Positions 4,514-64,000 of a stretch of DNA of 64,000 bases are shown in pieces. A program made the translations under genes and the position numbers. Each line of letters starts with the position of its first letter. Position 1 is the stretch's first letter. Source of the DNA: Halobacteria archaeon (GTDB lineage Archaea; Methanobacteriota_B; Thermococci; Methanofastidiosales; NM3); assembly GCA_036733165.1 (NCBI GenBank), contig DAINBB010000005.1:5547-69546 (forward strand), in the 5' to 3' direction. The notes under the pieces were generated by a model. The model was not told where the DNA came from and did no database searches. It was given only the letters and a program-made list of their open reading frames with translations.

Positions 4514-4517
4514 ATTA

Positions 4518-4898
4518 TCACATCTTCTTTGTCCATAGGCCGTGCACGTTGCAGTGCTCCCTGACCTCGATTATATCGTCGGTTATCTTGAACGTTGCCT
4601 CTGCCGGGGCGTTCGGCTTGAGGAATCTTGTGCACTTGCCATCCTTCGTTATTACCTCTATCCACTCTATGTGGTGGGCATCCTCCATGGGATGTGGCAC
4701 TTCCCCCACCTTCACCTTGACGTTTTCGCCCTCAGACTCTACCACAGGGACATGCTTCTCCAGTCCCATGTCGGCCGTCTTCGCCTCTAGAAGCACCATG
4801 GGCTGCCCGCAGCAGACGAGCTGGCCGGCGCCCCCGTCGTAGACCTCTACGATGTTACCACAAACCTCACATTTGTAGAATTGCAATCTCTTTGCCAT
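4518..4898 (-). CDS. dfx: desulfoferrodoxin (2Fe superoxide reductase)
   Basis: 126 aa; N-terminal desulforedoxin CxxC..CC motif (CEVCGN...VCCG) and SOR centre II His/Cys. Confidence 0.9.
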   Translation of the reverse strand: MAKRLQFYKCEVCGNIVEVYDGGAGQLVCCGQPMVLLEAKTADMGLEKHVPVVESEGENVKVKVGEVPHPMEDAHHIEWIEVITKDGKCTRFLKPNAPAEATFKITDDIIEVREHCNVHGLWTKKM

Positions 4899-4956
4899 AG
4901 ATATACCTCCTAAGGAGTACTATCTTAGGAGATATTAATATGTTTGCCAAAGTTAA

Positions 4957-5622
4957 TCATTTGAAAATCTCACCTTTCTCCATGTACCAGAATAAGAGGT
5001 CTAAGTGGTCCATGGGGATGCCGACCTTGTCCGAGAATTCCTTCATCTTGGACTCGATCTCGCAATACTTCCTTGGCCCCATGCTTTTGGGAATGTCCTC
5101 CAGGGCTCCGCCGGAAACGAGATTCCTGAGGATGTGGCGGTCCAGTATGGCCATGTCGCTGCCCCATCCGATGTTCCTCAAAAAGTGGCTGGCCTCCTTG
5201 TAGCCAATGCCCTTGATGTTGTCCACGAGCCATGTCCTGGCCTGGCAGGGGTCTGTGAATCCCTCCAATACTGTCTTTATGTCCGGCCCCTCGGTGAACA
5301 TGGTCCTGGCATCCACGAAGTACCGCGACTTGTTGTTCTTGAATCTCGCCCCCTTTCCCAGCACATGCGCGAGCTCGTCCCTTCCGATGGTCATGATGTT
5401 CCCCTGTCCCTTTAGGTCAGAGATTATGCTCCAGCACCTATGCGCGTTCGACTGCGGGGTGAGTATGCAGAACAGCAGTTCCACGAGGACGTCTTCGGAG
5501 CCGCCGTACCTCCAGATGCGGCCGAACTCCTCCAGCCTCTCCTCTATCTGGGTGTCTATAAGTTGGTGGACCCTCTTCAACTCATTTAAATAGTCTTTCT
5601 TGACGCTTTTCCTAAACTCCAT
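4957..5622 (-). CDS. ogg: archaeal-type 8-oxoguanine DNA glycosylase / N-glycosylase-DNA lyase (HhH-GPD, Ogg2-like)
   Basis: 221 aa; HhH-GPD motif (GIGYKEASHFLRNIG...D) with catalytic Lys/Asp context. Confidence 0.7.
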   Translation of the reverse strand: MEFRKSVKKDYLNELKRVHQLIDTQIEERLEEFGRIWRYGGSEDVLVELLFCILTPQSNAHRCWSIISDLKGQGNIMTIGRDELAHVLGKGARFKNNKSRYFVDARTMFTEGPDIKTVLEGFTDPCQARTWLVDNIKGIGYKEASHFLRNIGWGSDMAILDRHILRNLVSGGALEDIPKSMGPRKYCEIESKMKEFSDKVGIPMDHLDLLFWYMEKGEIFK

Positions 5623-9694: not shown

Positions 9695-11533
9695 TTGATT
9701 TGTTTGGCAAAGGTCTCAGTATCGCCGTTTGACAAGAGCATCGACATAGAATCTGGAAAGACTGTTCTTGACGCATTGAATATCCTTGGGATTCCCATTG
9801 AGGTTATCTGCGGAGGAAAGGGAACTTGTGGAAAATGCAAGGTAATAATCGAGGATCAGGAGAACGTATCTCCGTTGTCTGCGATGGAGCGGAAACTTCT
9901 TTCCGACAAAGAGCTTTGTGAACATTACAGACTGGCCTGCCTCGTGGCCGTGAACGATGACGTTTCGGTCTTCGTTCCGGAGTTCTCGCTCCAGAGGGAG
10001 CTTAGGATACTTGCCAACGGCCAGACCGTTGATGTGGTGCTGGACCCTCCTGTCAAGAAGGTGAATCTCCTGTTGCCGAAACCTGTGCTCGGGGACCACA
10101 TAAGCTTCGAGGAACTGGTCGTGTCCGGGCTCGGGCTCGAAGGATGCGGAATTGACTACATGGCCATAAAGAACATCTCGGAGACGATAAAGGATTCCAA
10201 CTTCGACATCGATGTGGTCTTTTTGAACAAGAACATAATCAGTGTCATGCCCCATAACAATCCCGGAAAGATATATGGTGCGGCAATGGACATCGGTTCC
10301 ACAACGGTTGTCATCTACCTGATGGACCTTCAGACCGGAGAAGTTGTGGACATCGAGTCGATGTTGAATCCGCAGGTGAGGTACGGCGAGGATGTGATAT
10401 CAAGGATCACCTATTCGATACAGTACGGGATCAAGGATGTCCATGACATAATACTGGAGGGTGTCAACTCGATGCTGAGGACGCTATGCCAGAGGAACGA
10501 CATCGATTCCAACTCGGTCGTGGAGATGACCGTTGTCGGGAATACGGCAATGCACCACATATTTCTGAACATACAGCCGAAGAGCATATCTCTTTCGCCT
10601 TTCACTCCCACAGTGAAGAAGTCCCTTGACCTGAAGGCAAGGGACATTGGCCTGATGATAAATCCTTCCGCGAACATACATGTACTTCCCGTAATCGCGG
10701 GTTTTGTCGGTGCGGACACCGTCGGGGTCCTGATGGCCACGGACATGTACCACAGCGACCAGGTGGCTCTTGCCATAGATGTGGGAACCAACGGGGAGCT
10801 GGTCCTTGGGAACAGGGACAAGATGGTAAGCTGCTCATGCGCAGCGGGCCCGGCCCTCGAAGGGGGCGAGATCAAGTTCGGTATGAGGGCATCACCCGGC
10901 GCAATAGAGGACGTGGTAATCAACAAGTACACGCTTGAACCGGAATACAAGACGATAAAGAACAAGAAACCTGTCGGCATCTGCGGCTCCGGCATCATCG
11001 ACGTGGTCGCGGAGATGCTCAAGATAGGCATTATCAACAGTTCCGGAAGGATGGTGGACCTCGGTTCGGACAGGATAAGGAAGGACCCTTCCACGGGGCT
11101 GTTGGAGTATGTCCTTGAATGGAAGGAGAACGCGGGAATCGACAAGGACATAGTCATAACCGCGGCCGATGTCAGGGAGGTCCAGTTGGCCAAGGGTGCA
11201 ATATACTCCGGGGCCCTCATACTTGTCGAGAGGCTTGGGATAGGCTTCGAGGATCTGGACAAGATATATCTTGCCGGAGCCTTCGGCAACTATATAGACA
11301 TAGAGAACGCGGTCAGGATGGGCCTGCTCCCGGACATACCCCTTGAGAAGATCAAGTCTGTCGGCAATGCCGCGGGCGAAGGGGCAAAGCTTTCGCTCCT
11401 CTCAAATTTGAAGAGGTCCGAGGAGAACAAGCTCTCAAAGGTAGTGAGCTACATAGAGCTCGCATCACACGACGATTTCCAAAACATCTTCGTGAACTCT
11501 TTGAACTTCCCCGAGTTCAAGTGTCCAACCTGA
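9695..11533 (+). CDS. ramA: RamA-like corrinoid reductive-activation protein (2Fe-2S ferredoxin + ASKHA/DUF4445 ATPase)
   Basis: 612 aa; N-terminal plant-type ferredoxin Cys pattern (CGGKGTCGKCKV), C-terminal ASKHA fold; only a TTG start available in frame. Confidence 0.7.
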   Translation: MICLAKVSVSPFDKSIDIESGKTVLDALNILGIPIEVICGGKGTCGKCKVIIEDQENVSPLSAMERKLLSDKELCEHYRLACLVAVNDDVSVFVPEFSLQRELRILANGQTVDVVLDPPVKKVNLLLPKPVLGDHISFEELVVSGLGLEGCGIDYMAIKNISETIKDSNFDIDVVFLNKNIISVMPHNNPGKIYGAAMDIGSTTVVIYLMDLQTGEVVDIESMLNPQVRYGEDVISRITYSIQYGIKDVHDIILEGVNSMLRTLCQRNDIDSNSVVEMTVVGNTAMHHIFLNIQPKSISLSPFTPTVKKSLDLKARDIGLMINPSANIHVLPVIAGFVGADTVGVLMATDMYHSDQVALAIDVGTNGELVLGNRDKMVSCSCAAGPALEGGEIKFGMRASPGAIEDVVINKYTLEPEYKTIKNKKPVGICGSGIIDVVAEMLKIGIINSSGRMVDLGSDRIRKDPSTGLLEYVLEWKENAGIDKDIVITAADVREVQLAKGAIYSGALILVERLGIGFEDLDKIYLAGAFGNYIDIENAVRMGLLPDIPLEKIKSVGNAAGEGAKLSLLSNLKRSEENKLSKVVSYIELASHDDFQNIFVNSLNFPEFKCPT

Positions 11534-25928: not shown

Positions 25929-26756
25929 TTATTTGAGGGAACGCTGCCGATGCCGCTTCAGAACGCAGCTTTCCAGCTTCTCTTCACCCAAGGGCCTGGC
26001 GTAATGCCTCTCAATGCCGTTTTCTATCATTTCAGCAAGCCCCTTGAAGGTCTTTGACAGGGGGTCGTCGGGATATGCCTCGATAAATGGGACCACCATC
26101 TCCTCCGCCCTCTGTATCCCCTTGTGTCTCGGGATCCGCGCGACTATCGGAAGGCCCACCTCAAGGGCGAACTCCTCGACCATCTCCTCATCGCCCTGCC
26201 CCCCTCTCGAGTTGAGGACTATCCCCCCTATGCGTGGGACATCTGTCTCATAGTTCGCGATGCCCCTGATGATATTGTTCGCGGCATACAGGGACATGAA
26301 CTCGCCGGACGTGACTATGAATATGGTGTCTGCATACTCCTTTCTCAGGGGCACGGCGAATCCTCCGCAGACCACATCCCCCAACACGTCATAGATGATA
26401 TAGTCTATATCGGGCGAGCTGCGGATGCCTTCCCTTCCAAGCAGTTCCAGCGTTGAGAGTATTCCTCTTCCGGCGCATCCGACGCCAGGTTCGGGCCCGC
26501 CCGCCTCGATGCACAATGCGCCCTTGTATCCCTCCAGGATGCAGTCCCTGACGTTCTCGAGCTTTTCCTTCCTTATCTGGTCAAGAACTGTAAACGGGTG
26601 GGTCCTGCCAAGAAGCAATCTTGTGGAGTCGTGCTTTGGGTCGCATCCTATCTGCACCACCTTCCTGCCCATGTCGGCCAGGCTTGCGGTCAGATTCGCT
26701 GAGATGGTGGACTTTCCGATCCCCCCTTTGCCATATACCGCTATCTGTCTTGTCAT
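25929..26756 (-). CDS. cfbC: NifH-like ATPase, Ni-sirohydrochlorin a,c-diamide reductive cyclase component CfbC
   Basis: 275 aa; P-loop GKGGIGKST and the two Fe4S4 ligand Cys, NifH family. Confidence 0.85.
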   Translation of the reverse strand: MTRQIAVYGKGGIGKSTISANLTASLADMGRKVVQIGCDPKHDSTRLLLGRTHPFTVLDQIRKEKLENVRDCILEGYKGALCIEAGGPEPGVGCAGRGILSTLELLGREGIRSSPDIDYIIYDVLGDVVCGGFAVPLRKEYADTIFIVTSGEFMSLYAANNIIRGIANYETDVPRIGGIVLNSRGGQGDEEMVEEFALEVGLPIVARIPRHKGIQRAEEMVVPFIEAYPDDPLSKTFKGLAEMIENGIERHYARPLGEEKLESCVLKRHRQRSLK

Positions 26757-26764
26757 GTCATCGC

Positions 26765-28141
26765 CTATTTCCTGAGATATTCCTTGGCCGAGTCGCAGAT
26801 GGCCATTGCCACCTTGCCCTGTGATGCCATATGAATGTGTGAGTATTGTGCGAGAACGTTCGATTCCATGATGCCGTCGTGCTTCCCGTCGATGCCTCTC
26901 CCCCTCTTGACATCAAAGGCGTATCTTATGTCATCCGATAAGCTTTCCACAGAGGAGTAGTGGAACTCGTGCCCTCTGATGACATCTCCCTGGCGGGCCA
27001 CTATGTTGCTTCTTATTGCCTCGATCTCCGAGTAGGATATGGATTGGCTTGTCCTGTGCATCCTGCTGTCTATGTCCAGGACCCCCGCCATCTTCCACCT
27101 GCGTCCGTCCAGGTCTGTCAGTTCCCTGCCAAGATACATCATTCCGCCGCATTCCGCATAGACAGGCATCCCGTCATCGATAAGCGTCTTCATGTGCCTA
27201 ATAAAATCCTTGTTGCCGCCCAACCGTTCGGAATGGCACTCGGGATAACCGCCCAGGAGCAGGAGCGCGGAGGTGTCGTCTGGCAATCGCCTGTCGGAGA
27301 GGGGCGATATGTACTCTATCCTTGCCCCAAGGGCCCTCAATGCTCTCAGATTCTCGTGATATATGAACGTGAAGGCCTTGTCGTGGGCGACCGATATCAT
27401 GAATCCTTCCTTTTCGAAGGCGTTTTCCTCCACCTCAACGTCCAGGTCGGGCGCGTTGCACGCCAACTCGAACAGTGCATCCACATCCACCGCCCCCTCA
27501 ACGGTGTCTGCTGCGGCATCTATCGCCTTTTCGCTGTCCTCGTTCTCCGCTACGGTGATCAGGCCCAGGTGCCTCATGGTCACAGAAAGCTCTCTGTCCC
27601 TCCTGATGGATCCGTATATCCTTTTCCCTGTCCTCTGCCATATGGCAGACGTTGCCTTGATATGATGCCTTGGCCCTTTGACCATGTTTATTATGAATCC
27701 CGATACATCGACGTCCCTGTCATATTCCATGAATCCCAGGGCCGATGCCGCAGCCCCCCTTGCGAGGCTTTGGATGTTCATCACCAATACCACCGGTGCC
27801 GAGAGGACCTTTGCGAGATGTGCCGTGCTTCCCTCGTCCCCCAAGGGGGACGCTCCGTCATAGAGGCTCCTTACCCCTTCTATGAGCACTATGTCGGAAT
27901 CAAGGGCGGCCTCGCCCACCGACCTCATGATGTGCTCCGGCGCCATCATCCACGTGTCCAGATTCCCCGATGGTCTCCCTGAGGCGCGCGAGAGGTACTC
28001 GGCATCTATATAATCGGGCCCGGACTTGAAGCATTTGACCTTGAACCCCCTTCGCTGGAGCGCCCTGGCGAGACCCATCGTCACGAAGGTCTTCCCGGAG
28101 TTGCTCGAGGTCCCCGAGATCACAAGCCTTGGGCACCTCAC
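26765..28141 (-). CDS. cfbB: Ni-sirohydrochlorin a,c-diamide synthase (CbiA family) CfbB
   Basis: 458 aa; CbiA N-terminal ATPase (GTSSNSGKT) plus C-terminal glutaminase domain; GTG start (28141 or 28123). Confidence 0.85.
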   Translation of the reverse strand: MRCPRLVISGTSSNSGKTFVTMGLARALQRRGFKVKCFKSGPDYIDAEYLSRASGRPSGNLDTWMMAPEHIMRSVGEAALDSDIVLIEGVRSLYDGASPLGDEGSTAHLAKVLSAPVVLVMNIQSLARGAAASALGFMEYDRDVDVSGFIINMVKGPRHHIKATSAIWQRTGKRIYGSIRRDRELSVTMRHLGLITVAENEDSEKAIDAAADTVEGAVDVDALFELACNAPDLDVEVEENAFEKEGFMISVAHDKAFTFIYHENLRALRALGARIEYISPLSDRRLPDDTSALLLLGGYPECHSERLGGNKDFIRHMKTLIDDGMPVYAECGGMMYLGRELTDLDGRRWKMAGVLDIDSRMHRTSQSISYSEIEAIRSNIVARQGDVIRGHEFHYSSVESLSDDIRYAFDVKRGRGIDGKHDGIMESNVLAQYSHIHMASQGKVAMAICDSAKEYLRK

Positions 28142-29250
28142 CCCATCACCATTGACCTGATCGTGCTGCCGAAACGCGATTCCACGATGTCACTTGCGCC
28201 GAGGACGTTGTGATGGGCCATTCCCTCATCCAGCACGATGCCGTATCCCAGTTTCTTGAGGGCGAAGAGGGCACGGGAACCGGTTGCCACGGCCATAGTG
28301 TTCTCCTTTTCCCATAACGGGACGGCATGCGGCAGTCCGCAGACCACTATGGCACCCCATTCCGCACCTTCGGACAACACCATTTCCGCTGCGCGTCTTC
28401 CCGTCACGGAGTATTCGTCCGGTCCACCGGTGACATGGTCCAATGTGATGCCTACCCTTTCGAATGCATTGAGCATTATGGAGGAATAGTGCCTTATCTT
28501 CGGAAGCCCTACCGATCCAGAGGCGTTCGCGACATAGAAGAGGCGCGATGCCGAGCCGAGCGCATCATGGGCCTCCTTTACTGCACAAAGCACGTCTGCG
28601 TACAGGAGGGAGGTCTCCTTCTTTGCGTTGAGCACCAGTGCCAACGGGTCACCGGACTCGAGCCTTCCTATCAAAAACCTTGCGGCCGCCTTATGGTCAT
28701 CGCCCGCAAAGGTGTCCAGATACGTCTCCCTGGCAGTGCCGTATGTCCTCTCGTTGACGTTTGCCGCCACCAACATGTCTTTTTGCCTCTTCGCCTCCTC
28801 CGGTGTGATGATGCCTTCGGCCGCGGCAGATTCCAACGCCCTTATCGCACCGTCGACATTGTCCGGATTGTACGGGTCGCAGTTGACCACTATCGTCTTG
28901 CACGACAGGCCGGCATGATGGACCGCCTTTTCTATGTCCTCGCCTATTATGGCTGCGCAGCAGGTGCCGACCACTCCCACCAATCTTGGGTTGAACCGCC
29001 TCTCGACCTCCCTCAGCGTGTTTATTAGTTTTGGTTCCCCCCCGAATATGACCGATTTCTGGTCCAGGGAGGAAGTCACCACCCTGACATTGTCCCGCTC
29101 AAGCAGCCTTGATGCCCTGAAGTTGCACCCCGCGGGGCCGTGGAGCACGATGACCTCCACGCCAAGGTCCCTAAGCGTGTACATGGCGGCTGCGATGGGG
29201 CTTGGTCTGGGATGCAGTATCCTTTCTGATTCCTCGTTCAGTTTGTACAT
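28138..29250 (-). CDS. cfbD: NifD/NifE-like subunit of the reductive cyclase CfbD
   Basis: 370 aa; nitrogenase component 1-type oxidoreductase fold with conserved Cys (HGPAGC, GTCCAAIIG). Confidence 0.85.
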   Translation of the reverse strand: MYKLNEESERILHPRPSPIAAAMYTLRDLGVEVIVLHGPAGCNFRASRLLERDNVRVVTSSLDQKSVIFGGEPKLINTLREVERRFNPRLVGVVGTCCAAIIGEDIEKAVHHAGLSCKTIVVNCDPYNPDNVDGAIRALESAAAEGIITPEEAKRQKDMLVAANVNERTYGTARETYLDTFAGDDHKAAARFLIGRLESGDPLALVLNAKKETSLLYADVLCAVKEAHDALGSASRLFYVANASGSVGLPKIRHYSSIMLNAFERVGITLDHVTGGPDEYSVTGRRAAEMVLSEGAEWGAIVVCGLPHAVPLWEKENTMAVATGSRALFALKKLGYGIVLDEGMAHHNVLGASDIVESRFGSTIRSMVMG

Positions 29251-30638
29251 GAGATGATCACCCCTTCCTCCTCGGTGATCGAATCAGTGGCCTCGTCCTT
29301 TGTTGAGAACATCGGGGCGTTGCAACCTCTTTTGGCCATTTCGGAGCCAAGCTCCCCGTACAGCGCCACATTCCTCCCATCTAAAATATGGCATTTGAGC
29401 ATCGATGAAAGACCATCGAAGTCCACCTTTCCGCATGTTGTCTTGGAGAGCCCCCCTATCAGCAGGGACAGCCGTCTCCTTGTGAGCTCTGCATAGTCCT
29501 TGGCCTCGACGATGGCATTGTCGATCGTCTCCTTCGATGTGGCGGTCGATGAGATGATAGTGCATCCGCATCTGTTCGATGCGACAAGTCTGTTGTCTGG
29601 CGGCACGCTCTTCTCCAACCCTTCTACAATCGATAGTTCATCCATATTCATTGACAGTGCTATTGATGCTGCCGCAAGGAAGTTAGAGACGGCGCTCCTC
29701 CCAAAATAGGACCTGTTGGGTGAGAACTCCATCGTCGTGTCGATTTGATTGCCCTTGACCGTACTTAGATTGCTCACGTCGATAGTCAATCTTCCGGTAT
29801 CCGGATTGAGCGCCTTTTTGTCCGCCACGACATTTCCATCCCCCTCGACAGAGAACATATTCGTCTTGGACGGCGCCATCATCTCCATCCTTCTTGTCGG
29901 GTCGTCATCGCCGTTGAGGCAGAGGACGGATGTCGGACGGATGTACTGTGCCATCTGGGCCTTTGAGAAGAACGAGCTCCTGTTCACGCCCACCCTTAGG
30001 TGCAGCGGAACGCCCAGCACCGCGCATACCGATCCTATTCCAAGTCCGCCGAGAGATATCTCAAAGACATAGTTCTTTGGATTGTACCCAGATTCCCTTG
30101 TTATCCTGACAGCCTTCAAGGCGTAGGCGGGGGTGATGCTGCCGTTTCCATCCAAAATGCGGACATTGTCCCCCTCGACCACCTTCACGCCCTTGCTGGA
30201 CATGACCATGCTTTCCTCCCCGTCACGGACCAGGATGGATTCAAGATGCGTGACCGTCGTGGTCTTTCCGTAGGCGCCTGTGATCTCCACTATCCTGCAT
30301 TTTCCCAACATATCGGATAGGATGAGCCCGGTGGCCCTTGCATGGGTAAGGAGCGGTATCCCCTCCTCCCCGCAAAACTGGGTTATGTCCTCTCTGTTCG
30401 GGGAGTACTGCATGGTGACGAGGTGCGGGTCTGCGGTCACCAGTGCGTCGTTGAAGGTCTTGAACACAGGTATCGAACTGGCTGAAAGGCATGCCAGTTC
30501 CTCTTTTTTGAGGGTACCATGGACATCGACGGCTGTAACATTGGCTCCGTATCTTGAGTACGAATCGCATAGCTCCATTCCGCCATGGGTCATGTCGACA
30601 ACGACAACGTTTTTGCCCCTTATCCTTTCGATGTACAT
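29238..30638 (-). CDS. cfbE: coenzyme F430 synthetase (Mur ligase family) CfbE
   Basis: 466 aa; Mur-ligase middle-domain P-loop (ITGAYGKTTT). Confidence 0.8.
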   Translation of the reverse strand: MYIERIRGKNVVVVDMTHGGMELCDSYSRYGANVTAVDVHGTLKKEELACLSASSIPVFKTFNDALVTADPHLVTMQYSPNREDITQFCGEEGIPLLTHARATGLILSDMLGKCRIVEITGAYGKTTTVTHLESILVRDGEESMVMSSKGVKVVEGDNVRILDGNGSITPAYALKAVRITRESGYNPKNYVFEISLGGLGIGSVCAVLGVPLHLRVGVNRSSFFSKAQMAQYIRPTSVLCLNGDDDPTRRMEMMAPSKTNMFSVEGDGNVVADKKALNPDTGRLTIDVSNLSTVKGNQIDTTMEFSPNRSYFGRSAVSNFLAAASIALSMNMDELSIVEGLEKSVPPDNRLVASNRCGCTIISSTATSKETIDNAIVEAKDYAELTRRRLSLLIGGLSKTTCGKVDFDGLSSMLKCHILDGRNVALYGELGSEMAKRGCNAPMFSTKDEATDSITEEEGVIISCTN

Positions 30639-31036
30639 CTTTTCACTGTTTCACAAGCCCTGTCGTTGATGATGTCCACAAGCCTGTCGTCCGCACCGAA
30701 AGGATCGGAGTAGTAGAATCTCCTTATCTTGCCGTTTATCTCCATATCCTTTACCTTTTCTCCATTCTCTAGTCCCAGGATCGCTGGCACGTCCTCCTTG
30801 ATGTGGACTCCGGGCGCGACAAACACCGGCGCCATCACGATGGACGTCACCCTCGGGTCCTGGCAGACGTTCTCTATGGCGTCCTTTATGGAGGGCGTGT
30901 TCATGTTCATGAAGGAATATGACACAGCATCCCATTTGGAACCTTTCTTTAACTTGTCTGCAAGCGCAGATACTACTTCCTTGTTATGTGGCATGGAGCT
31001 TCCATGGCCCACCAGAATTATTGCTCTCATCTCCAT
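30620..31036 (-). CDS. cfbA: sirohydrochlorin nickelochelatase (small CbiX-type) CfbA
   Basis: 138 aa; CbiX(S) class II chelatase with catalytic His (VGHGSS); first gene of the operon, AT-rich promoter region upstream (31040-31480). Confidence 0.85.
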   Translation of the reverse strand: MEMRAIILVGHGSSMPHNKEVVSALADKLKKGSKWDAVSYSFMNMNTPSIKDAIENVCQDPRVTSIVMAPVFVAPGVHIKEDVPAILGLENGEKVKDMEINGKIRRFYYSDPFGADDRLVDIINDRACETVKRCTSKG

Positions 31037-54581: not shown

Positions 54582-54869
54582 ATGGGCGCGCCCAATCTCG
54601 ATGATTTTTATTCAAAACCAGACTACTGCATAAAAGCGCACATGATGGCCCGTGAAATGTACAAATGGGACCAACCTCCATTTGTCATGGACCCTGGCTA
54701 CCTAACTGAAATTTGGGGCGGAAAGGCCATGCGCTTGGCATGGGTTGCGAGCTTCCGCCGCCGTCCCCTCCGTCAAATGTGTTCGGCATGGTCAAGGCAG
54801 CAGAGGAATATGGAAGACGCTGATCTTCCTTTATCTTTTTATATTCATATCTATCTTTTTTACCTATGA
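54582..54869 (+). other. unresolved ORF: about 50 plausible N-terminal codons that decay into AT-rich sequence and overlap the DUF1638 start; possible gene remnant
   Basis: MGAPNLDDFYSKPDYCIKAHMMAREMYKWDQPPFVMDPGYLTEIWGGKAM looks protein-like; the remainder is low-complexity. Confidence 0.2.
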
Positions 54870-55609
54870 GACGATTGGGAATAATCTCTTGCCAGGTGTT
54901 CGAATGGGAACTGGCCCACATTCTCGACAAGAGGCGCGACATAGACAACATATATATCTTAAACACGCCTGAGAACAAGGGGTTTGCCCAATGCCTGAAC
55001 AATCACAAGGCAAAGCTCATCAGGGACCCCTACTTTCTGCCAAGGCTCTCGAGGACCTTGGATGTATTGGTCAACATACTGCCCATAGGTCTTCATATAG
55101 ACATCGACGAGCTTGAGTACGAATGCAACGAAAACATCAACACCTTCAAGGAATGTGCCTCAAGGGTCCTTCTTCTCTATGGTCTCTGTGGCAATGCCCT
55201 GAAGAACATCATCCACAGAGAGGATGTCGATCTCCTTTATCCCCGTGACAGCGAAGGGCTTGTCGACGACTGCATATGCTCCATCTTGGGCAGGGAGCGG
55301 TATTTCGAGGAACTTAAGCGAAATGGCAGCTTCTTCATGATACCCGGAATGGTGAATCATCGCGATGGCATGGTGGGGCGTATAGAGGAAAGGGTGTCAA
55401 GGGCATACTCAGACGAGGACACCAAGTTGCTGCTCCAGGTCAATGAGTATGAGAGGGCGCTCATAGTCGAGGAGGGCATAGAGACGGACGACTACCTCAG
55501 AAGGGCCCACCTCTTGGCGAATAATTTTGGGCTTGCGATTGAGAGGACTGCCGGCGACCTCTCCCTTTTGGAAGATACCATCGATAATGCGCTTTCCTCG
55601 ATGGATTAA
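54866..55609 (+). CDS. DUF1638 domain protein (paralog 1)
   Basis: 247 aa; shares IISCQVFE...ILPIGLHID...LLYGLCGNA...VDDCICSILGRE blocks with the 58813-59538 paralog. Confidence 0.6.
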   Translation: MRRLGIISCQVFEWELAHILDKRRDIDNIYILNTPENKGFAQCLNNHKAKLIRDPYFLPRLSRTLDVLVNILPIGLHIDIDELEYECNENINTFKECASRVLLLYGLCGNALKNIIHREDVDLLYPRDSEGLVDDCICSILGRERYFEELKRNGSFFMIPGMVNHRDGMVGRIEERVSRAYSDEDTKLLLQVNEYERALIVEEGIETDDYLRRAHLLANNFGLAIERTAGDLSLLEDTIDNALSSMD

Positions 55610-55640
55610 ATTTTAATATGCACCTTGACATTAATTCATA

Positions 55641-57437
55641 ATGCCCCAGTCATACAGGATACTCCATGTGGAGGACGACAATGAATACTTCGAGCTCTTC
55701 AAGACCCAGATGCAGAGGATCAATGGCAAAGAAGGGTGGGGTAGTCTGGAGTTTGTCAATGTCGCGTCCCTGGACGATGCCTTGGAACTGTTTGAGAATG
55801 GATCTTTTGACCTTATCATCAGTGATTATCAGGTATTGAAGGGAAATGGCATAGACTTTCTAAAGAACGTAAGGGAGAGGGACCTTTCTATCCCCTTCAT
55901 TTTCCTTACCTCGCAGGGTGATGAACAGATTGCGAGGGATGCTTTCATACACGGGGCGAACGATTATTTTTCAAAGCAGGTGGGATTGGCAAGTTATGAG
56001 AAGATATTCAATGCCATGAGGTCCCAAGTGGACCTGTACAATTCAAGGAGAAGGGAATCTGAGGTTAACAGGAAGCTTTACCAGAACGAGGAGCTATTGA
56101 TCAATCTTTTCGAGTCAATATCCGATTTCCTCTACTACAAGGACCCCGAGGGGCGATATGAGATCGTCAACAAGGCGTTCGAAGAGGCTGTCGGACTTAA
56201 GAAGATGGACATCATTGGCAGAAGGGACGAGGATATATTTTCCAAAAAGGATGCCAAGATCCTTGGCGATGAAGGAAAGATGGTGATGGAATCCATGGAG
56301 CCCATGACATTCGAAAACAACATATCGCTGGGTGGCGGCCGGAATTATTACGAGATCCTTATGGTCCCCATTACAAATGGCCATGACAATAAGGTCAGAT
56401 TGATGGGCATTGGCAGGAATATCACTAAAAGAAAGATGGTGGAGGAATCCCTTAGGAAAAGTGAACTATTGTATCGCACACTTACGGAAAACATACCAAA
56501 CTGTTGTCTTGTGCTGTACAACAACGCCCTGGAGGTAGTTTTTGCAGGGGGTGATTCCTCCAATAACATGTTCAAGGACGTGAAGGACCCGGCCTCCGTC
56601 TTTTGGGAACTCTTCGAAGAGGATACCCTGATGGCGCTGGAATCCGGATTCACACGTGCCTTGCATGATGTCAAGCAATCTTTTGAGATAGTCCATGAGT
56701 CCAGAAACTTCGATGTCTACACCCTGCCGATAAAGAACTATGGGGGCCATGTCGAACTGGCCATGGCCATGATATATGACATCACGGAGAGAAAAAGGAC
56801 CGAAAAGGAGCTTATCGATCAAAGAAAGGAACTTTCCGACTATGCCCATATCGTATCCCACAACCTAAAGAACCAACTGATAACCATCAACGCCTATGCC
56901 CAGCTCATACTGGAGGGGGACGAGGACAGTCCCATCTTTGCCAAGAGCCTGATGAAGACGGTGAAGAAGGTCAACGAGTACATATCTGGACAGTTGAAGC
57001 TTGCGGAGGCTGGAAGGAACATAGGGGATCTCAGGGAAGTGGACCTCAATCAGCTGGTCAACAGGATAGGCAAGAACTTCCTGATAGAGATAAAGGGAAA
57101 TGATCTCCCGACGATAATGGGGGACCCCAAGAACATAGAGGAGGTATTTATCAATCTTGTCTCAAATTCCTTCAAACACGGGAAGGCTGACAAGGTCTCG
57201 ATATATTCTCAAATTGATGGCGAATGGAACAGGATAGTCTTTGAGGACAATGGTGTGGGCATTCCCGATCAATACGTTGATGATATCTTCAATCTGGGAT
57301 TTTCCACAGACGGCACCGGTTTCGGACTTGCCATAGTGAAAAAGATCATAGAATCACATGGCGGCAGCATAAGGCTCCTGCCGTCGAATGGCACGGGCGC
57401 ATCCTTTGAGATACTTTTCCCGCTAAGCAATTCCTAG
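55641..57437 (+). CDS. hybrid sensor histidine kinase (REC-PAS-PAS-HisKA-HATPase_c)
   Basis: 598 aa; N-terminal receiver with phospho-acceptor Asp (LIISDYQV), H-box (HIVSHNLKNQL), G-boxes (DNGVGIP, GTGFGLAIV). Confidence 0.85.
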   Translation: MPQSYRILHVEDDNEYFELFKTQMQRINGKEGWGSLEFVNVASLDDALELFENGSFDLIISDYQVLKGNGIDFLKNVRERDLSIPFIFLTSQGDEQIARDAFIHGANDYFSKQVGLASYEKIFNAMRSQVDLYNSRRRESEVNRKLYQNEELLINLFESISDFLYYKDPEGRYEIVNKAFEEAVGLKKMDIIGRRDEDIFSKKDAKILGDEGKMVMESMEPMTFENNISLGGGRNYYEILMVPITNGHDNKVRLMGIGRNITKRKMVEESLRKSELLYRTLTENIPNCCLVLYNNALEVVFAGGDSSNNMFKDVKDPASVFWELFEEDTLMALESGFTRALHDVKQSFEIVHESRNFDVYTLPIKNYGGHVELAMAMIYDITERKRTEKELIDQRKELSDYAHIVSHNLKNQLITINAYAQLILEGDEDSPIFAKSLMKTVKKVNEYISGQLKLAEAGRNIGDLREVDLNQLVNRIGKNFLIEIKGNDLPTIMGDPKNIEEVFINLVSNSFKHGKADKVSIYSQIDGEWNRIVFEDNGVGIPDQYVDDIFNLGFSTDGTGFGLAIVKKIIESHGGSIRLLPSNGTGASFEILFPLSNS

Positions 57438-58796
57438 CCATTGGCTTTCCATCTTTCCTATTATGGACCTTGCCCAAAGGAAGGATAGCATCCCGCTCAA
57501 CAGATTGGCCACGACTATGCTCGACCATATCCCCAAAAGGCCATAATCCATGACTATTCCCAACATGTATGCCGCCGGAACGGTGAATATCACTGTTCTC
57601 AGAAGGGTCACGCTCAGGCCGTTGATGCCTTTCCCTATCCCATTGAAGAAGGATGATGAGAACATGCTCAGGGAGGCGACAGGGAGATATATGCACACCA
57701 CCCTAAGAAATGTCACGAGGCCTTCGTATATCCTGGCCGCCCCGTCCCCCTGGGTGAAAAGCATTGCTATGTACGGCGCCAGGAGATATACTGCCAGGGC
57801 TATCAGGGACTCAAAGACAATACCCAAGCGCAGTGAATATAGATACGTCTCCTTCAGTTTTCCGTATTGTTTTGCCCCAAAGGTTGCCCCGGTCACCGTC
57901 GAGACCCCCATGGCCATCCCGATCAACGGCAGTGTTGCCATGTTGGTGACACGCCATCCCGTGCTGAGGATCGCCACGCCGTCGGTTCCGCCAACGCTCA
58001 GGACTATGCCGTTGAGAAGGAACATGTACACGGAGAAGGAAACGGTCTGGAACGATGCGGGAATGCCCACCTTGAAGATGTCCAAGGACACGTCTTTGGA
58101 TATTGAACGTTGCCGCAGGTCTATATCGGCGTACGATTGCCTTTTTGCAACCAACCAATAATGAGCCATGATGCAGCTTGAAAGATAGGATATCACCGTG
58201 GCCCAGGCGGCGCCGGCTATCCCCATGTCCAACTGATAGATGAATATGGGGTCCAGGACCATGTTCAGACATGTCCCCAGCAGCATTGCGAACATGGACC
58301 TCTTTGCATCGCCTTGATTTCTTAGCACGGCGTTAGAGAGGTCAGAGAGAAATATTATCAAGGTCCCGGCAAACATGACACGTGCATACGAAAGGGTCTG
58401 GGGAAGGATATCGTCAGCCCCGAGATACTGGAACATATTGTCTGAAAAGACCAACAACGGCGCCGAATATGCCAGGGATACTACTATCGCGAAGATGTAG
58501 GAATGGCTCAGTATGTTGCCTGCGCCCTTTCTGTCCTCAGCACCTATGCGTCTCGCCAGGGCAACACCGCCCCCAACACTGATTGCGGAGGAGATTGCCA
58601 ATGTAAGGTAGTAAAATGGATAGAACAAACCAACCGCGGAGAGTGCGTCCGCCCCAAGCCCCGATACCCATATGGCATCGACGAGATTGTAGACGGTGTT
58701 GGCGACCATGGCGATTATCATCGGTATGGAGATATTCAGTATTGCCTTTTTCGGGTCTGATAGCAACTTATCCCTGCTGTGGTAATACTTCTCCAT
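57423..58796 (-). CDS. MATE-family efflux transporter
   Basis: about 457 aa, 12 TM helices; ATG 58796 (GTG 58811 in track). Confidence 0.85.
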   Translation of the reverse strand: MEKYYHSRDKLLSDPKKAILNISIPMIIAMVANTVYNLVDAIWVSGLGADALSAVGLFYPFYYLTLAISSAISVGGGVALARRIGAEDRKGAGNILSHSYIFAIVVSLAYSAPLLVFSDNMFQYLGADDILPQTLSYARVMFAGTLIIFLSDLSNAVLRNQGDAKRSMFAMLLGTCLNMVLDPIFIYQLDMGIAGAAWATVISYLSSCIMAHYWLVAKRQSYADIDLRQRSISKDVSLDIFKVGIPASFQTVSFSVYMFLLNGIVLSVGGTDGVAILSTGWRVTNMATLPLIGMAMGVSTVTGATFGAKQYGKLKETYLYSLRLGIVFESLIALAVYLLAPYIAMLFTQGDGAARIYEGLVTFLRVVCIYLPVASLSMFSSSFFNGIGKGINGLSVTLLRTVIFTVPAAYMLGIVMDYGLLGIWSSIVVANLLSGMLSFLWARSIIGKMESQWLGIA

Positions 58797-58812
58797 GCTC
58801 GCACCTGCCACG

Positions 58813-59538
58813 CTATGGACCGATCGTCTCTTCGAAACATTTCATTAGGATGTTCATGTTTCCATCTGTCCGTTCCATTGGGAGCTCCACATCGGTCGAG
58901 GCCTTTCGGGCGAGATCCATATCGACATCTTCCCAAAGGCCATGGTCTATGACCATCGTTCTGCGATATCCCGCATACTCCAACATCATCTTCATCCCCT
59001 CCATGTCGCCATCCCGGTTCCCCATCAGGCCCGCCATGTCCTTCCAATGAAGGGCGAATCCCGGAATGAAGAACAAGCTTCCAAGATTCTTCAGCTGTTT
59101 TAGGTATTCCTTCCTGCCTAGGACAGAACAGATGCAGTCGTCGACTATCTCTCCTTCGTCCCTTGGCGCTATCAGTTCTATGTCCTCCCTGTTGAACACC
59201 CTTTTCGAGGCGTCCCCGCAGAGGCCGTAGAGCATCATTACCTTGTCACAATGTTCCTTTAGAGCGTCTATGGACCTTGACCTTTTCTCTATGAGGTCGT
59301 CGATGTCTACATGCAGTCCTATGGGCAGTATCTCCAATAGGACGTCCGTTCCCTCACCCTTGGGCAGGCCCCCTATATCATCGATGAAATTGAGCTTCCT
59401 TTTCTTGAGCATGGACGAGAATTCCATGTTCTCTTTCGTTGGCCTTGCGTATACCCTGTCTATCGATCCGTTTTTCTCCAACAGGAACGCAAGCTCCTTC
59501 TCGAACACCTGACAGGCAATGATGCCCACCCTCTTCAT
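58813..59538 (-). CDS. DUF1638 domain protein (paralog 2)
   Basis: 241 aa from ATG 59538 (MKRVGIIACQVFEKE...); the N-terminal extension of the track ORF is intergenic. Confidence 0.6.
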   Translation of the reverse strand: MKRVGIIACQVFEKELAFLLEKNGSIDRVYARPTKENMEFSSMLKKRKLNFIDDIGGLPKGEGTDVLLEILPIGLHVDIDDLIEKRSRSIDALKEHCDKVMMLYGLCGDASKRVFNREDIELIAPRDEGEIVDDCICSVLGRKEYLKQLKNLGSLFFIPGFALHWKDMAGLMGNRDGDMEGMKMMLEYAGYRRTMVIDHGLWEDVDMDLARKASTDVELPMERTDGNMNILMKCFEETIGP

Positions 59539-59619
59539 GAAAAAACATGATGTCCTTGGTATATAAGTTTGAGCTTGTATTATCATAATAGCACATATGA
59601 TAATATATAAGGAAATTAA

Positions 59620-59760
59620 AAGGTGGACCAGCACCCCCGACAATTGGGTTAAGGTGCTACGTTCAGTACGAACACCTCTTTTTTCAGGTGCTGGTCCGTG
59701 CAACGATCTCCTACATAGGGCCTTTCGGTGTATGCAGTTCCAAACCACCGAAGTGATTTG
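59620..59760. ncRNA. candidate structured RNA: nested inverted repeats in a 430-bp non-coding gap
   Basis: 11-bp perfect stem ggaccagcacc (59625-59635) / ggtgctggtcc (59687-59697) enclosing an inner aggtg..gttc-agtac-gaac..cacct hairpin; second stem ttcggtg / caccgaa at 59724-59752; strand and identity unknown. Confidence 0.2.
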
Positions 59761-59973
59761 AGAGACCCATGTGATCGACGTTCCAGAACAGTACACTGAA
59801 TTCCTGTTCCTTTGCTCCCACATGTTTGTTGCAATATAATATACACATCATTCCTATATAAATTTATTTTGACAAAAAGAAATTGATATTGATACATTAT
59901 GTATCAGTTCTAACCATTAAAATGTAAAAAATAAGATATATTATAAAATAATAAAAAATATTATCATATCTAA

Positions 59974-60480
59974 TCAATGGAACATAATCAGTTTTGATAA
60001 TTTTTCAGGTATATTGTCTATTTTTTCTTGGATATGTTTCTTTTTGGCTTCTGAACATTCGCCAATGAATAACCCAAGGTCCTTGAATTCCTTGATGGGA
60101 TGATTGGATATGTCTTGTATCGTTTTCTCATAGAGCTTATCTATCTGCAGGCATTCCTCGATAAACTTGAGCTCAATATCCTTCATGTTCAAAACGACCT
60201 GTTGCACCTTTTTGAGTAGTGGATTCTCCAATTTGTCCACAAGTTCTTTCCTTAGCAGCGCATCGTAGATGAATCTCCTGTACCAGGTGATGTTGTCCCT
60301 GTTCGTCATGATCGTTTTATTTCCGCTCTTGTAGTCCTTGATGTACTTGTCATATTGCTGTGCAAGCAGGATTGCATCTGAGAAGATCCTTTTCTCCTCA
60401 GAGTTAAGATCAAGTTCCATGGTATCTATAATATCGTTTGGAGACACTTCGTTAAAATATTCGGCATGCTGCAATTTCAT
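59974..60480 (-). CDS. hypothetical protein in AT-rich islet
   Basis: 169 aa from ATG 60480 (GTG 60513 in track); Lys/Glu-rich, no motif; local GC far below the window average. Confidence 0.4.
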   Translation of the reverse strand: MKLQHAEYFNEVSPNDIIDTMELDLNSEEKRIFSDAILLAQQYDKYIKDYKSGNKTIMTNRDNITWYRRFIYDALLRKELVDKLENPLLKKVQQVVLNMKDIELKFIEECLQIDKLYEKTIQDISNHPIKEFKDLGLFIGECSEAKKKHIQEKIDNIPEKLSKLIMFH

Positions 60481-60567
60481 ATTACCACTTCTACTATAAT
60501 TCCAACTGACCACTAATAACTTTTTTTCTTTATAAGGGCTTTGATGTGGAAAGAAGAAAAAGGGGAA

Positions 60568-61344
60568 TTATATCCCCCTCAGTGTTCCAAAGAAGACCTG
60601 CCAGGCCAAAAGTGATTTGGAGACAAGACTGAGCACAATATACATCTTTTCCCCATAGTAGTAGTCTTTCCAGCGTCCGACACCCTTGTATTGCAGTGCC
60701 ATATTGACCGCGAAGCTCATGAAGAATGTGAAGAGGGAGACAAATATATAGTATACGAAGTCTGGCACGCCACCGCCGTCTCCGCCCGCACCGGCCAGGT
60801 ACATCGCTATCACTATCCAAGGCGCTGATCCGGCGATGCATCCGAATATGTAAGCGGTCCAGCTTACCTTTTCCCTGTCTTGATTGTATAGTTCCATCAT
60901 CAGTCCAAAGAGGTTCATCGTGCCGTTTATCATGAAGATGGGTATGAGTGCTGCAATGTCGTAGATGCCGGTCAACATTGCAATAACGACTATCATTATG
61001 GAGGAACTAAGGGCATACTCGTACCAACGGAGATAGTTTATATGTCTCTTTAGATTTTTCACATACCATTCAAATCCGATAGTTGAGAGGTAGAAGTGAC
61101 ATACTGCGGATATCAGTAGAAATAATGCAATCAACGGCCCGAGGGGAACTGAAACCATATCTTCCATGACGGTTTCCAGAGATTGCGTTTCGACAAAGAA
61201 TTTGACATAGAAACTCTTTATGGGCAGTGAATAACCGTTGCTCAAGTATAATATCAATAAGGACTGTACAAGGTGCAGACAACCCATGAAAAGATTGAAG
61301 TTCTTTAAACCTTTGAAGGTCTTTTCATCATCTTTTGTTGTCAT
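60568..61344 (-). CDS. heliorhodopsin (7-TM retinal-binding photoreceptor)
   Basis: 258 aa, 7 TM; blocks that match heliorhodopsin 48C12 as recalled: LKNFNLFMGCLHLVQ, RWYEYALSSSIMIVVIAM (TM3 counterion Glu), FGCIAGSAPW, VPDFVYYIFVSLFTFFMSFA, YIVLSLVSKSLLAWQVFFGTL (TM7 Schiff-base Lys at residue 243). Confidence 0.8.
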   Translation of the reverse strand: MTTKDDEKTFKGLKNFNLFMGCLHLVQSLLILYLSNGYSLPIKSFYVKFFVETQSLETVMEDMVSVPLGPLIALFLLISAVCHFYLSTIGFEWYVKNLKRHINYLRWYEYALSSSIMIVVIAMLTGIYDIAALIPIFMINGTMNLFGLMMELYNQDREKVSWTAYIFGCIAGSAPWIVIAMYLAGAGGDGGGVPDFVYYIFVSLFTFFMSFAVNMALQYKGVGRWKDYYYGEKMYIVLSLVSKSLLAWQVFFGTLRGI

Positions 61345-61568
61345 GTGTTACATTATATGTCTTATTGATATTCTTATATTTATCTAGATATATTGTTTTT
61401 TTCATACATTTTTTCTATTTTTTTCGACGTGTTCTTCAATATTGAACTTTCTTTTTAGATCATTGGGTTCATATATCTCACTTTTCCAAAGACAAGTTCC
61501 TTTTTCCATCACAAATATGTTAAAGCCTGCATTATAGATACATATTTGCATAAATAAGGTGAAAGACC

Positions 61569-62063
61569 ATGGATGTAATGGAAGCCATAAGGAAAAGAAG
61601 AAGTGTTAGGAAGTATTCAAATAGAAGGGTGGATGATGAGACGGTAGGCGTTTTACTCGAGGCCGCGAGACTTGCACCTTCTGCCAGAAACATACAGAAC
61701 AGGAAATATGTCGTTTTAGACAATATAGATGATGAGGTGGCGGATGCATGCAATGGCCAATCATGGGTATCCACAGCCCCCTTGATGATGATGGGCTTGA
61801 TAGACCCTACTGTCAACAAATGGGCCGAGACCGACATGGCCATCGCCTTTGAACAGGTAGTCCTGGAGGCTGTTGAACTGGGTCTTGGGACCTGTTGGAT
61901 CGGCGCCTTTGATGAAGGGAAGATAAAAAGGATAATAGGCGCACCTGAGAACATGAGGGTATATGCACTATTGTCAATTGGTTATCCAGAAACGAATCCT
62001 TCCCAGATGACCAGCAAAAAGCCTATCGATGAAATATGGTCCAAGGACAAGTACAAGTGGTAA
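61569..62063 (+). CDS. nitroreductase-family protein
   Basis: 164 aa; RRSVRKY FMN-binding motif at N-terminus. Confidence 0.8.
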   Translation: MDVMEAIRKRRSVRKYSNRRVDDETVGVLLEAARLAPSARNIQNRKYVVLDNIDDEVADACNGQSWVSTAPLMMMGLIDPTVNKWAETDMAIAFEQVVLEAVELGLGTCWIGAFDEGKIKRIIGAPENMRVYALLSIGYPETNPSQMTSKKPIDEIWSKDKYKW

Positions 62064-62243
62064 TCAGAACTCAAGTCTCGTCTTATTGCCGCAGATGGGA
62101 CAGGATGCCAGCACGTTAAGTTCCTCGTTCTTATCCTTTTTTTGATCATATTCATCCAAAAGGTCAGTATCGGGCGTGAATTCATGGCTGCATCTGGGAC
62201 ATTTGACCTTTTTGCCGATATCGCAACTTTCTCCTTTTTTCAT
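62064..62243 (-). CDS. small zinc-ribbon protein (59 aa, not in ORF track)
   Basis: hand translation MKKGESCDIGKKVKCPRCSHEF...ASCPICGNKTRLEF; two CxxC pairs; stop abuts the nitroreductase stop. Confidence 0.35.
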   Translation of the reverse strand: MKKGESCDIGKKVKCPRCSHEFTPDTDLLDEYDQKKDKNEELNVLASCPICGNKTRLEF

Positions 62244-62677: not shown

Positions 62678-63355
62678 ATGGCAACAAGGGAATTCGATAT
62701 AGAACTGGACAAGGCCAGTGTCAAGAGGATCCTTACGACCAGTAGTGGAAAAGGTCTTGACGATACGATCGACAACGTGCTGGAGACATGCATGGAAACT
62801 GCGCATCCCATCGCAGCATATGAAACGTCCGACATCAAAGTTCTTGATGACGACAGGCTCCTGATAGGCGGTGAGGAGTTCACTAGCAATTTCCTCAGAA
62901 GGTGCCTAGGACAAAAGGAGAAGGTCCATCCCTTTGTAATGACCCTGGGAAAAAAGACCGATGAGGCACTTTATGGGCAATCAGATGTCCTGTCACAATA
63001 CATACTTGACGTTCTCTACAATCTTGTCCTGGTCAAGATGGAAAGGGGGTTGAGGTCGCAGATAGGCAATGAATATTCATACGCCCACATCTCAAAACTG
63101 AGCCCGGGGTCGCTTGACTATTGGCCCCTACAGCAACAGCTGCCTCTTTTTAATCTGCTTTCAGAGGGAATAAAACAGATTGATGTTGAGTTGGACAAGA
63201 ACTGTATCATGCATCCATCAAAATCCATATCAGGGATCATATTCCAAACGAGAATACCTTTCAGTTCCTGTATATTCTGTTCGATGGAGGGGTGCCCCGG
63301 CAGGGAGCAACCATACCAAATAGAAAAATCGGAATATTATCTTGGAAAGATTTAG
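62678..63355 (+). CDS. protein resembling the stand-alone B12-dependent methionine synthase activation domain (PF02965-like), uncertain
   Basis: 225 aa from ATG 62678; SPGSLDYWPLQQQ motif recalls the MetH AdoMet-binding domain SPGY..W; C-terminal Cys cluster; from memory only. Confidence 0.35.
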   Translation: MATREFDIELDKASVKRILTTSSGKGLDDTIDNVLETCMETAHPIAAYETSDIKVLDDDRLLIGGEEFTSNFLRRCLGQKEKVHPFVMTLGKKTDEALYGQSDVLSQYILDVLYNLVLVKMERGLRSQIGNEYSYAHISKLSPGSLDYWPLQQQLPLFNLLSEGIKQIDVELDKNCIMHPSKSISGIIFQTRIPFSSCIFCSMEGCPGREQPYQIEKSEYYLGKI

Positions 63356-63577: not shown

Positions 63578-64000
63578 TTATGTTATGTCGTTTATACTAA
63601 TTAAATCTAATCTCCGTTACCTTTCCACTATGCTGGCTGTCCGCACCAAAACCCCACAATAAGAGCTGCATTCCATATTGGAAAAGTGATTTTTGTTATA
63701 AATATTGTCCTTAAATATATAATAATAATGAATTATATTTACATATTTTTCTATTTAATAAAATTAATTTAATTAATTTAGATTTATCAGAATATATATA
63801 ACATAGACACAACTATTTTATGAACATAAAAGTGTTAAACTCATAAAATATATCCTTTTCTATACATATTTTATGTCAAGAAAACTATTTATAGCATCGA
63901 GTGGTATGTAATTATGTCAGCAACACAAGGGAGCGAAGGAATGGATTCAGTCTACCATTCCGGAACACAGAACTTGTGGGTTTCAAGATTGCTACGCAAC

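Follow-up and report, generated by a model that had tools for sequence, protein, structure and literature searches.

In the Firmicute Trichococcus flocculiformis, the heliorhodopsin (HeR) TfHeR binds a class II cyclobutane pyrimidine dimer (CPD) photolyase, TfPHR, with a dissociation constant of about 22 μM and raises repair approximately 3-fold (Shim et al., 2022; PMC9769723). Cytoplasmic-loop residues R162, K227 and E97 of TfHeR are needed for this binding. Photolyase genes are among the recurrent neighbors of HeR genes (Chazan et al., bioRxiv 10.1101/2021.02.16.431466; Cho et al., 2024, PMC11109279). HeRs have also been described from strictly anaerobic Firmicutes (PMC8612252), and BcHeR originates from the strict anaerobe Bellilinea caldifistulae, an isolate obtained from thermophilic anaerobic treatment of waste/wastewater. 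The searchable literature contains no paper that combines the terms 'heliorhodopsin' and 'Methanofastidiosa', and no methanogen HeR is discussed in it. Here we analyze a HeR gene encoded in a 64,000-nucleotide stretch of contig DAINBB010000005.1 (assembly GCA_036733165.1), referred to in full as the window, in which the class II CPD photolyase gene that precedes HeR in related lineages has been deleted, leaving a short remnant.

A photolyase remnant upstream of heliorhodopsin

The HeR locus of the window was compared with four syntenic relatives (L005, L008, L045 and L047), one of which is a contig from the Methanofastidiosia metagenome-assembled genome GCA_016930445.1. The gene order nitroreductase, (photolyase), HeR, a gene of 167–175 amino acids (aa) and DUF1638 is common to these four other lineages, and beyond DUF1638 the relatives carry (MatE, then) a response-regulator/PAS kinase. 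In L005, L008 and L045, a gene of 448–463 aa lies between the nitroreductase and HeR, co-oriented with HeR and ending 9–38 bp before it. The intact orthologue scored 381 bits against the class II CPD photolyase 2xry in the Protein Data Bank (PDB), which we take to be the enzyme of Methanosarcina mazei. The same slot in the window is a 224-bp spacer upstream of HeR, so that an adjacent, same-strand class II CPD photolyase is present in these three relatives and represented in the window by a stub only. The features of the unit, in the direction of HeR transcription, are as follows.

61513–61568, no strand: short AT-rich divergent intergenic region from the nitroreductase to the former photolyase start (alignable with the spacers of L005 and L008)
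61402–61512, minus strand: class II CPD photolyase remnant, a fused and frameshifted 111-bp stub (BLASTN, tblastn and base-level alignment)
60568–61344, minus strand: HeR gene, 258 aa, intact (Pfam, NCBIfam and PDB matches)
61018–61020, minus strand: codon of Glu109, predicted Schiff-base counterion, 48C12 E107 (residue mapping by HMMER alignment)
60616–60618, minus strand: codon of Lys243, predicted retinal Schiff-base lysine, 48C12 K241 (residue mapping by HMMER alignment)
59974–60480, minus strand: soluble, predicted all-helical protein of 168 aa, a clade-restricted ORFan and candidate HeR partner (co-conservation)

Within the stub, the first codons of the photolyase (GTG ATG GAA AA, 61512–61502) are joined to its last ~40 codons (61492–61402), placing a deletion of ~1.25 kb at 61493–61501. 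BLASTN alignment showed that positions 8620–9866 of L005 are missing between window positions 61503 and 61492, and the same break was found against L008. The C-terminal photolyase motif was recovered by tblastn and reads FGKVRYMN in one frame and, after a 1-bp frameshift, LKRKF in another; the 49-aa open reading frame (ORF) predicted by the gene-finding program at 61402–61551 is this photolyase stub. Over its well-aligned core, the stub resembles the intact orthologues about as closely as these resemble one another, and because it has diverged so little from the intact genes, the deletion is recent relative to the lineage splits. Upstream of the stub, 61513–61568 could be aligned with the nitroreductase-photolyase spacers (33–45 bp) in L005 and L008, with an ATCTAWAAT stretch in common, and probably keeps a promoter from which transcription would now pass through the stub into HeR. 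The deleted photolyase in the 224-bp spacer is the most informative feature of the locus and was missed in the original prediction, which had been made from the letters of the window and a list of its ORFs.

The fourth relative has lost its photolyase in a different manner. Positions 2297–3537 of L047 hold a photolyase pseudogene with three in-frame stops, one frameshift and a 50-aa internal deletion, beside which both HeR and the following 175-aa gene are intact. The window deletion and the L047 pseudogene therefore represent two independent photolyase losses. Together these loci amount to a natural experiment within one methanogen class, with intact photolyase-HeR units, one decaying photolyase and one clean recent deletion, and HeR and the small ORFan are retained in all photolyase states of the locus.

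Heliorhodopsin and its possible role without photolyase

The 258-aa ORF on the minus strand at 60568–61344 is present exactly as the original prediction gave it, and the profile searches agree with its assignment as a HeR. Pfam PF18761 (Heliorhodopsin) matched with 328.4 bits over the whole model (1–242 of 242; cut-off 26.7), and the NCBIfam HeR equivalog NF038020 with 332.6 bits (cut-off 100), both far above the cut-offs. In a PDB search the best solved relative was TaHeR (6is6; E = 3e-82, 279 bits), with 53% identity over 250 residues and a single 4-residue gap, and 48C12 (6su3) matched with E = 3e-60 and 208 bits. We then mapped the structurally important positions of 48C12 (Kovalev 2020, PMC7049168) onto the window protein by HMMER alignment to the 48C12 chain and found 31 of 33 residues to be identical. 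In helix 7, Lys243 aligns with the Schiff-base lysine K241 of 48C12 and has the codon that the original prediction gave for it, and the counterion glutamate that had been predicted in helix 3 is residue 109 rather than 108, aligned with E107. The counterion and its stabilizing serines (48C12 E107, S76, S111 and S237) correspond to E109, S79, S113 and S239, all identical, as are all residues of the Schiff-base cavity (48C12 H23, H80, N16, N101, R104, Y92, Y108 and E230), which in window numbering are the histidine pair H24 and H83 together with N17, N103, R106, Y94, Y110 and E232. The two differing positions are Q213 of 48C12, replaced by Met215, and L227, replaced by Tyr229; methionine at the former position has been described as a frequent variant, and a change at L227 is not discussed (PMC7049168). 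For TaHeR itself, the counterion column is the sole difference between entries 6is6 (E) and 7clj (D) in the aligned region shown. The gene thus encodes a genuine full-length HeR, for which an inverted topology with a cytoplasmic N-terminus would be expected from the 53% identity to solved TaHeR. The gene identity is not new, as it is already public through NCBI pipeline annotation: an identical protein is deposited in GenBank as 'heliorhodopsin HeR [Candidatus Methanofastidiosa archaeon]' (HPR41448.1).

Three replacements, C82, Y153 and S242, are specific to this clade and occupy columns where other HeRs are conserved to at least 95%. C82 adjoins His83 and S242 adjoins the Schiff-base Lys243, and the three positions may act as sites of spectral or kinetic tuning.

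Branch-specific ratios of nonsynonymous to synonymous substitution (dN/dS) were unusable for assessing constraint, as synonymous sites were saturated in every pair, and deviation at family-conserved columns was used instead. The columns compared were the 78 with at least 95% conservation across 110 other HeRs. The window protein deviated at three of them, the same C82, Y153 and S242, all of which are common to the photolyase-bearing relatives; private changes at these columns numbered zero. Its cytoplasmic loops also differ very little from those of the relatives that carry a photolyase. Over the whole protein, 13 private substitutions were counted on the window branch, compared with 2–7 in its closest relatives.

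The gene following HeR encodes the 168-aa protein. The original prediction had called it an upstream hypothetical; with respect to transcription it in fact lies on the downstream side of HeR, 87 bp away in the window and 57–137 bp away in all five syntenic lineages. Across the family 78 columns are invariant, Cys110 and Cys142 among them, and dN is 0.18–0.25 with dS saturated. Pfam and NCBIfam contained no family for the protein, and only 5 clusters of it were found among 5.8 billion proteins. An exhaustive profile search (1.84 billion representatives, E ≤ 0.001) returned five matches, of which only two are full-length family members: its own cluster and a genuine distant homologue, P0126. The others were a repetitive sequence of 1038 aa, a 65-aa fragment and a protein that matched only in part, its N-terminal half being unrelated. 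P0126 is not adjacent to a HeR, which weakens the idea of an obligate linkage between the two proteins. By its co-conservation alone, the 168-aa protein is the best candidate for a HeR partner.

A second group of Methanofastidiosa HeRs, with 71% identity, is represented by two GenBank entries (L051 2486–4612 and L053 5678–7843). These genes have a divergent GMC-type FAD oxidoreductase upstream and an adenylate kinase downstream, and neither a photolyase nor the 168-aa gene is adjacent at the two loci. Because this group occupies another conserved context, HeR is a widespread gene in the class.

We favor a reading in which the window carries a vertically inherited Methanofastidiosa HeR whose photolyase was recently deleted and which most likely still serves as a photoreceptor with another partner, and assign this a probability of roughly 0.7. 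The protein would be a seven-helix membrane protein binding retinal at Lys243 with Glu109 as counterion and, by homology, would act through a slow photocycle as a light sensor modulating partner proteins, not as an ion pump. The ancestral unit would have begun with a class II CPD photolyase, followed by HeR and the 167-aa protein, presumably transcribed as an operon, with HeR acting as a photolyase helper as in Trichococcus. The recent ~1.25-kb deletion would have brought the old promoter region to ~170 bp upstream of HeR. After this loss HeR would most likely still work as a photoreceptor, with the 168-aa protein as its best candidate partner and with retinal that could be scavenged or made by some other route. 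A role beyond photolyase is favored by the constraint at conserved columns, by the L047 locus and by the second HeR group. Moreover, because the photolyase that is intact in some lineages needs light, members of Methanofastidiosa must meet light, and a light sensor is therefore not paradoxical here.

Several points weigh against this reading. Private substitutions are more numerous on the window branch than in its closest relatives, although the shape of the tree accounts for part of the 13. As the deletion is young, an intact HeR may simply have lacked the time to decay. A second photolyase, or genes for carotenoid or retinal synthesis, could lie outside the visible 64 kb. Finally, the proposed partner has no detectable family, its sole distant homologue is not linked to HeR, and an AlphaFold2 model built with five orthologues was poor (mean predicted local distance difference test score of 47.7).

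The alternative that survives best is that HeR is a relic, functionless here with its photolyase gone and its host in dark, retinal-free anaerobic reactors, and intact only because that loss is recent. The barely decayed stub, and hence the youth of the deletion, would fit such a history, as would the private substitutions, the lack of a retinal pathway among the window ORFs and the fact that wastewater sludge and digesters are typical habitats of Methanofastidiosa (PMC7302380). However, the L047 lineage lost its photolyase long enough ago to have collected five lesions, yet keeps an intact and conserved HeR, and the second Methanofastidiosa group maintains HeR without any adjacent photolyase. 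The absence of private changes at the 78 family-conserved columns and the recovery of an identical protein from at least four datasets also argue against loss of function, and we consider a relic unlikely.

A stronger proposal, that HeR in Methanofastidiosa has a function independent of photolyase and has stayed under purifying selection after both losses, maybe through the 168-aa protein, is put forward only tentatively, and we would not expect it to hold in full. If true, strictly anaerobic methanogens, in which O2-dependent retinal synthesis is implausible, would have a source of retinal or another chromophore that needs no O2-dependent carotenoid dioxygenase, or would use HeR in the dark. 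Whether HeR function is tied to photolyase, and what else HeR regulates, are testable questions at these loci.

Inheritance of the locus and its surroundings

The original prediction placed HeR and its neighbor in an AT-rich islet of an anaerobe genome, with a GC content far below the average taken as consistent with horizontal acquisition; on this view the two genes would be a recent import into an otherwise unrelated genome. A very low GC suits the intergenic stretches (GC 0.26–0.34) and the 168-aa gene (0.385), but not HeR itself, at 0.438 compared with a gene mean of 0.52 (standard deviation, SD, 0.045). With a GC at third codon positions (GC3) of 0.55 compared with 0.66 (SD 0.07), HeR lies ~1.5–1.9 SD under the window gene mean. 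These values, the composition of the 168-aa gene and flanking spacers, and published reports of horizontal exchange of HeRs in general are what a recent islet has in its favor. The lowered GC3, however, is common to all genes between 59.9 and 63.4 kb and is not confined to HeR. Orthologous HeR genes have a GC of 0.42–0.435 within loci of GC 0.41–0.45, and no gene has a lower GC than the orthologue of the 168-aa gene in any lineage; as the orthologues share these values, low GC is an old and stable property of the genes, seen here within a GC-richer genome.

Synteny contradicts a recent acquisition as well. The same locus and gene order occur in four lineages separated by saturated dS, with HeR identities to the window of 82, 79, 78 and 74%, a regional nucleotide identity of ~68–72% by BLASTN and a dN for HeR of 0.08–0.18. 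By these substitution patterns, the clade is old and has been under long-term purifying selection. The nearest HeRs are all from Methanofastidiosa or from contigs syntenic with the window, and a scan of a genome collection, pattern-based and not a census, found only one Methanofastidiosia species representative with a close HeR. A recent islet is thus very improbable. A transfer at an ancient date, into the class ancestor, may have occurred but is a distinct claim.

A chimeric contig in which two organisms' sequences meet at the AT-rich boundary, which the original prediction had named as a way in which it could fail, has a negligible probability: nothing but the compositional dip speaks for it, related species keep the same gene order over >20 kb, and the HeR neighborhood was recovered at 99.98–100% identity, across both AT-rich boundaries, on four independent contigs from other datasets (Logan SRR5007228, JGI 3300025702, JGI 3300010350 and ENA ERZ27257475), which excludes a chimeric join.

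The remaining contents of the window support a host from an F430-encoding methanogen lineage, Candidatus Methanofastidiosa. Five contiguous genes at 25929–31036, in the order cfbA-E-D-B-C, each had the corresponding Cfb family as best NCBIfam match; CfbA and CfbD scored above the curated cut-offs, and CfbB, CfbC and CfbE were best matches yet under the strict cut-offs. The hemA, hemL, hemB and hemC genes and a cobA-hemD fusion adjoin them, and a RACo/RamA-like activase is encoded at 9695–11533. The full cfbABCDE set and the RamA-like activase reported in the original prediction were thus borne out, as was its statement that crt and blh genes are absent from the window: a Pfam scan of 58 window ORFs gave no match to a carotenoid or Blh family. 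A cluster on the minus strand at 3938–5622 encodes rubrerythrin, desulfoferrodoxin and 8-oxoguanine DNA glycosylase, an oxidative-stress defense typical of strict anaerobes.

Further features close to HeR include a candidate RNA and the two genes beyond the former photolyase start.

59618–59833, minus strand (the HeR strand): structured RNA candidate, a GC-rich core of 216 nucleotides (nt) (conservation, RNAalifold and covariation)
61569–62063, plus strand: nitroreductase-family gene, conserved divergent neighbor of the (photolyase-)HeR unit (Pfam PF00881/PF14512; same place in every syntenic locus)
62064–62243, minus strand: 59-aa CxxC...CxxC zinc-ribbon ORF (weak zinc-ribbon Pfam matches; orthologues aligned by eye)

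The 168-aa gene is separated from DUF1638 by a 435-bp 'AT-rich spacer' that is conserved at 76–80% over ~400 nt, above the level of the flanking genes. Within it, the candidate RNA has hairpins with UUCG and GAAA tetraloops and the invariant strings GGAATTCAGTGTACTG and GCACCTTAACCCAA; a conserved TATA-like box, TTTATATA, lies upstream of the core and an oligo-T run downstream. RNAalifold analysis of seven copies gave 63 pairs and −72 kcal/mol, compared with −40 on the other strand. Consensus pairs were formed in 96% of cells, compared with 41–45% with slid partners, and compensatory double changes were found at 19 pairs, compared with 2–4 in the slid controls; none of 500 shuffles reached the observed covariation. 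Scans of the AT-rich region with Rfam and for tRNAs gave no relevant match. A paralogous copy begins at 63915 on the plus strand and is cut by the window end (63915–64000 visible), and five Methanofastidiosa lineages have two RNA paralogues per genome. A missed small gene in the spacer was considered and rejected in favor of an RNA, because the G-U pairs are specific to one strand and the base changes are compensatory, and joint duplication of a leader-plus-gene unit was rejected because the genes downstream of the two copies are unrelated. The element at 59618–59833 looks like an undescribed archaeal structured RNA, placing a candidate new RNA family beside the HeR locus. Close to the second RNA copy, window positions 63856–63994 recur as an inverted copy with 97–98% identity at two independent JGI contig ends (L002 1–110 and L003 1–138), probably as an assembler artefact.

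The nitroreductase, the 59-aa zinc ribbon and the small membrane protein named as neighbors of HeR in the original prediction were all confirmed. The zinc-ribbon ORF abuts the nitroreductase stop. The relatives conserve it as well, and its C-terminal NVLASCPICGNKTRLEF is nearly invariant. Zinc-ribbon-HeR fusions are known from Thermoplasmatales (PMC8612252); a connection of the 59-aa ORF to HeR is speculative. On both sides (54866–59538 and 62678–63355) the neighborhood is rich in unknowns associated with corrinoids and methyl transfer. A response-regulator/PAS/HATPase kinase and a MatE transporter lie between two DUF1638 genes, in an order conserved in the relatives, and a 225-aa protein nearby has a weak match to the activation domain of B12-dependent methionine synthase.

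Comparison with described heliorhodopsins

Among solved HeRs, the window protein shares with TaHeR from Thermoplasmatales archaeon SG8-52-1 the glutamate counterion, the Schiff-base lysine, the histidine pair and the methionine at the Q213 position of 48C12. TaHeR belongs to another archaeal class, however, and the Methanofastidiosa clade differs from it by the changes A to C82, H to Y153 and A to S242. The founding member 48C12 agrees with the window protein in nearly all of its structurally important residues, but is an actinobacterial group A protein with a lower PDB score than TaHeR (208 compared with 279 bits).

The original prediction regarded a light sensor as unexpected in an anaerobic host. 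Its observation that the window holds no retinal genes stands, but the surprise was overstated, as there are precedents. BcHeR and the Firmicute HeRs likewise belong to strict anaerobes, although their hosts are bacteria. The schizorhodopsins of Methanoculleus (MtSzR and MsSzR) are also retinal proteins encoded by methanogens, but represent another rhodopsin family, oriented the opposite way in the membrane, whose members are type-1-like pumps that move protons inward. The missing retinal pathway is likewise a general puzzle of HeR genomes, which strict anaerobiosis sharpens but does not create: blh is rare in such genomes, and an unknown route to retinal has been proposed (Chazan et al., bioRxiv 10.1101/2021.02.16.431466), and a bacterium lacking blh has been found to produce retinal (Nakajima et al., 2020, PMC7734400).

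The Trichococcus TfHeR-TfPHR system is comparable in gene arrangement, since the sister lineages of the window likewise pair a class II CPD photolyase with HeR, co-oriented and 9–38 bp apart. It differs in that the photolyase is deleted in the window, that the host is an archaeal methanogen and not a Firmicute, and that the Methanofastidiosa unit adds the clade-specific 167/168-aa gene. The class II photolyase and HeR of the relatives provide an archaeal pair for biochemical comparison with the Trichococcus system, and the window locus adds a photolyase-HeR unit caught losing its photolyase.

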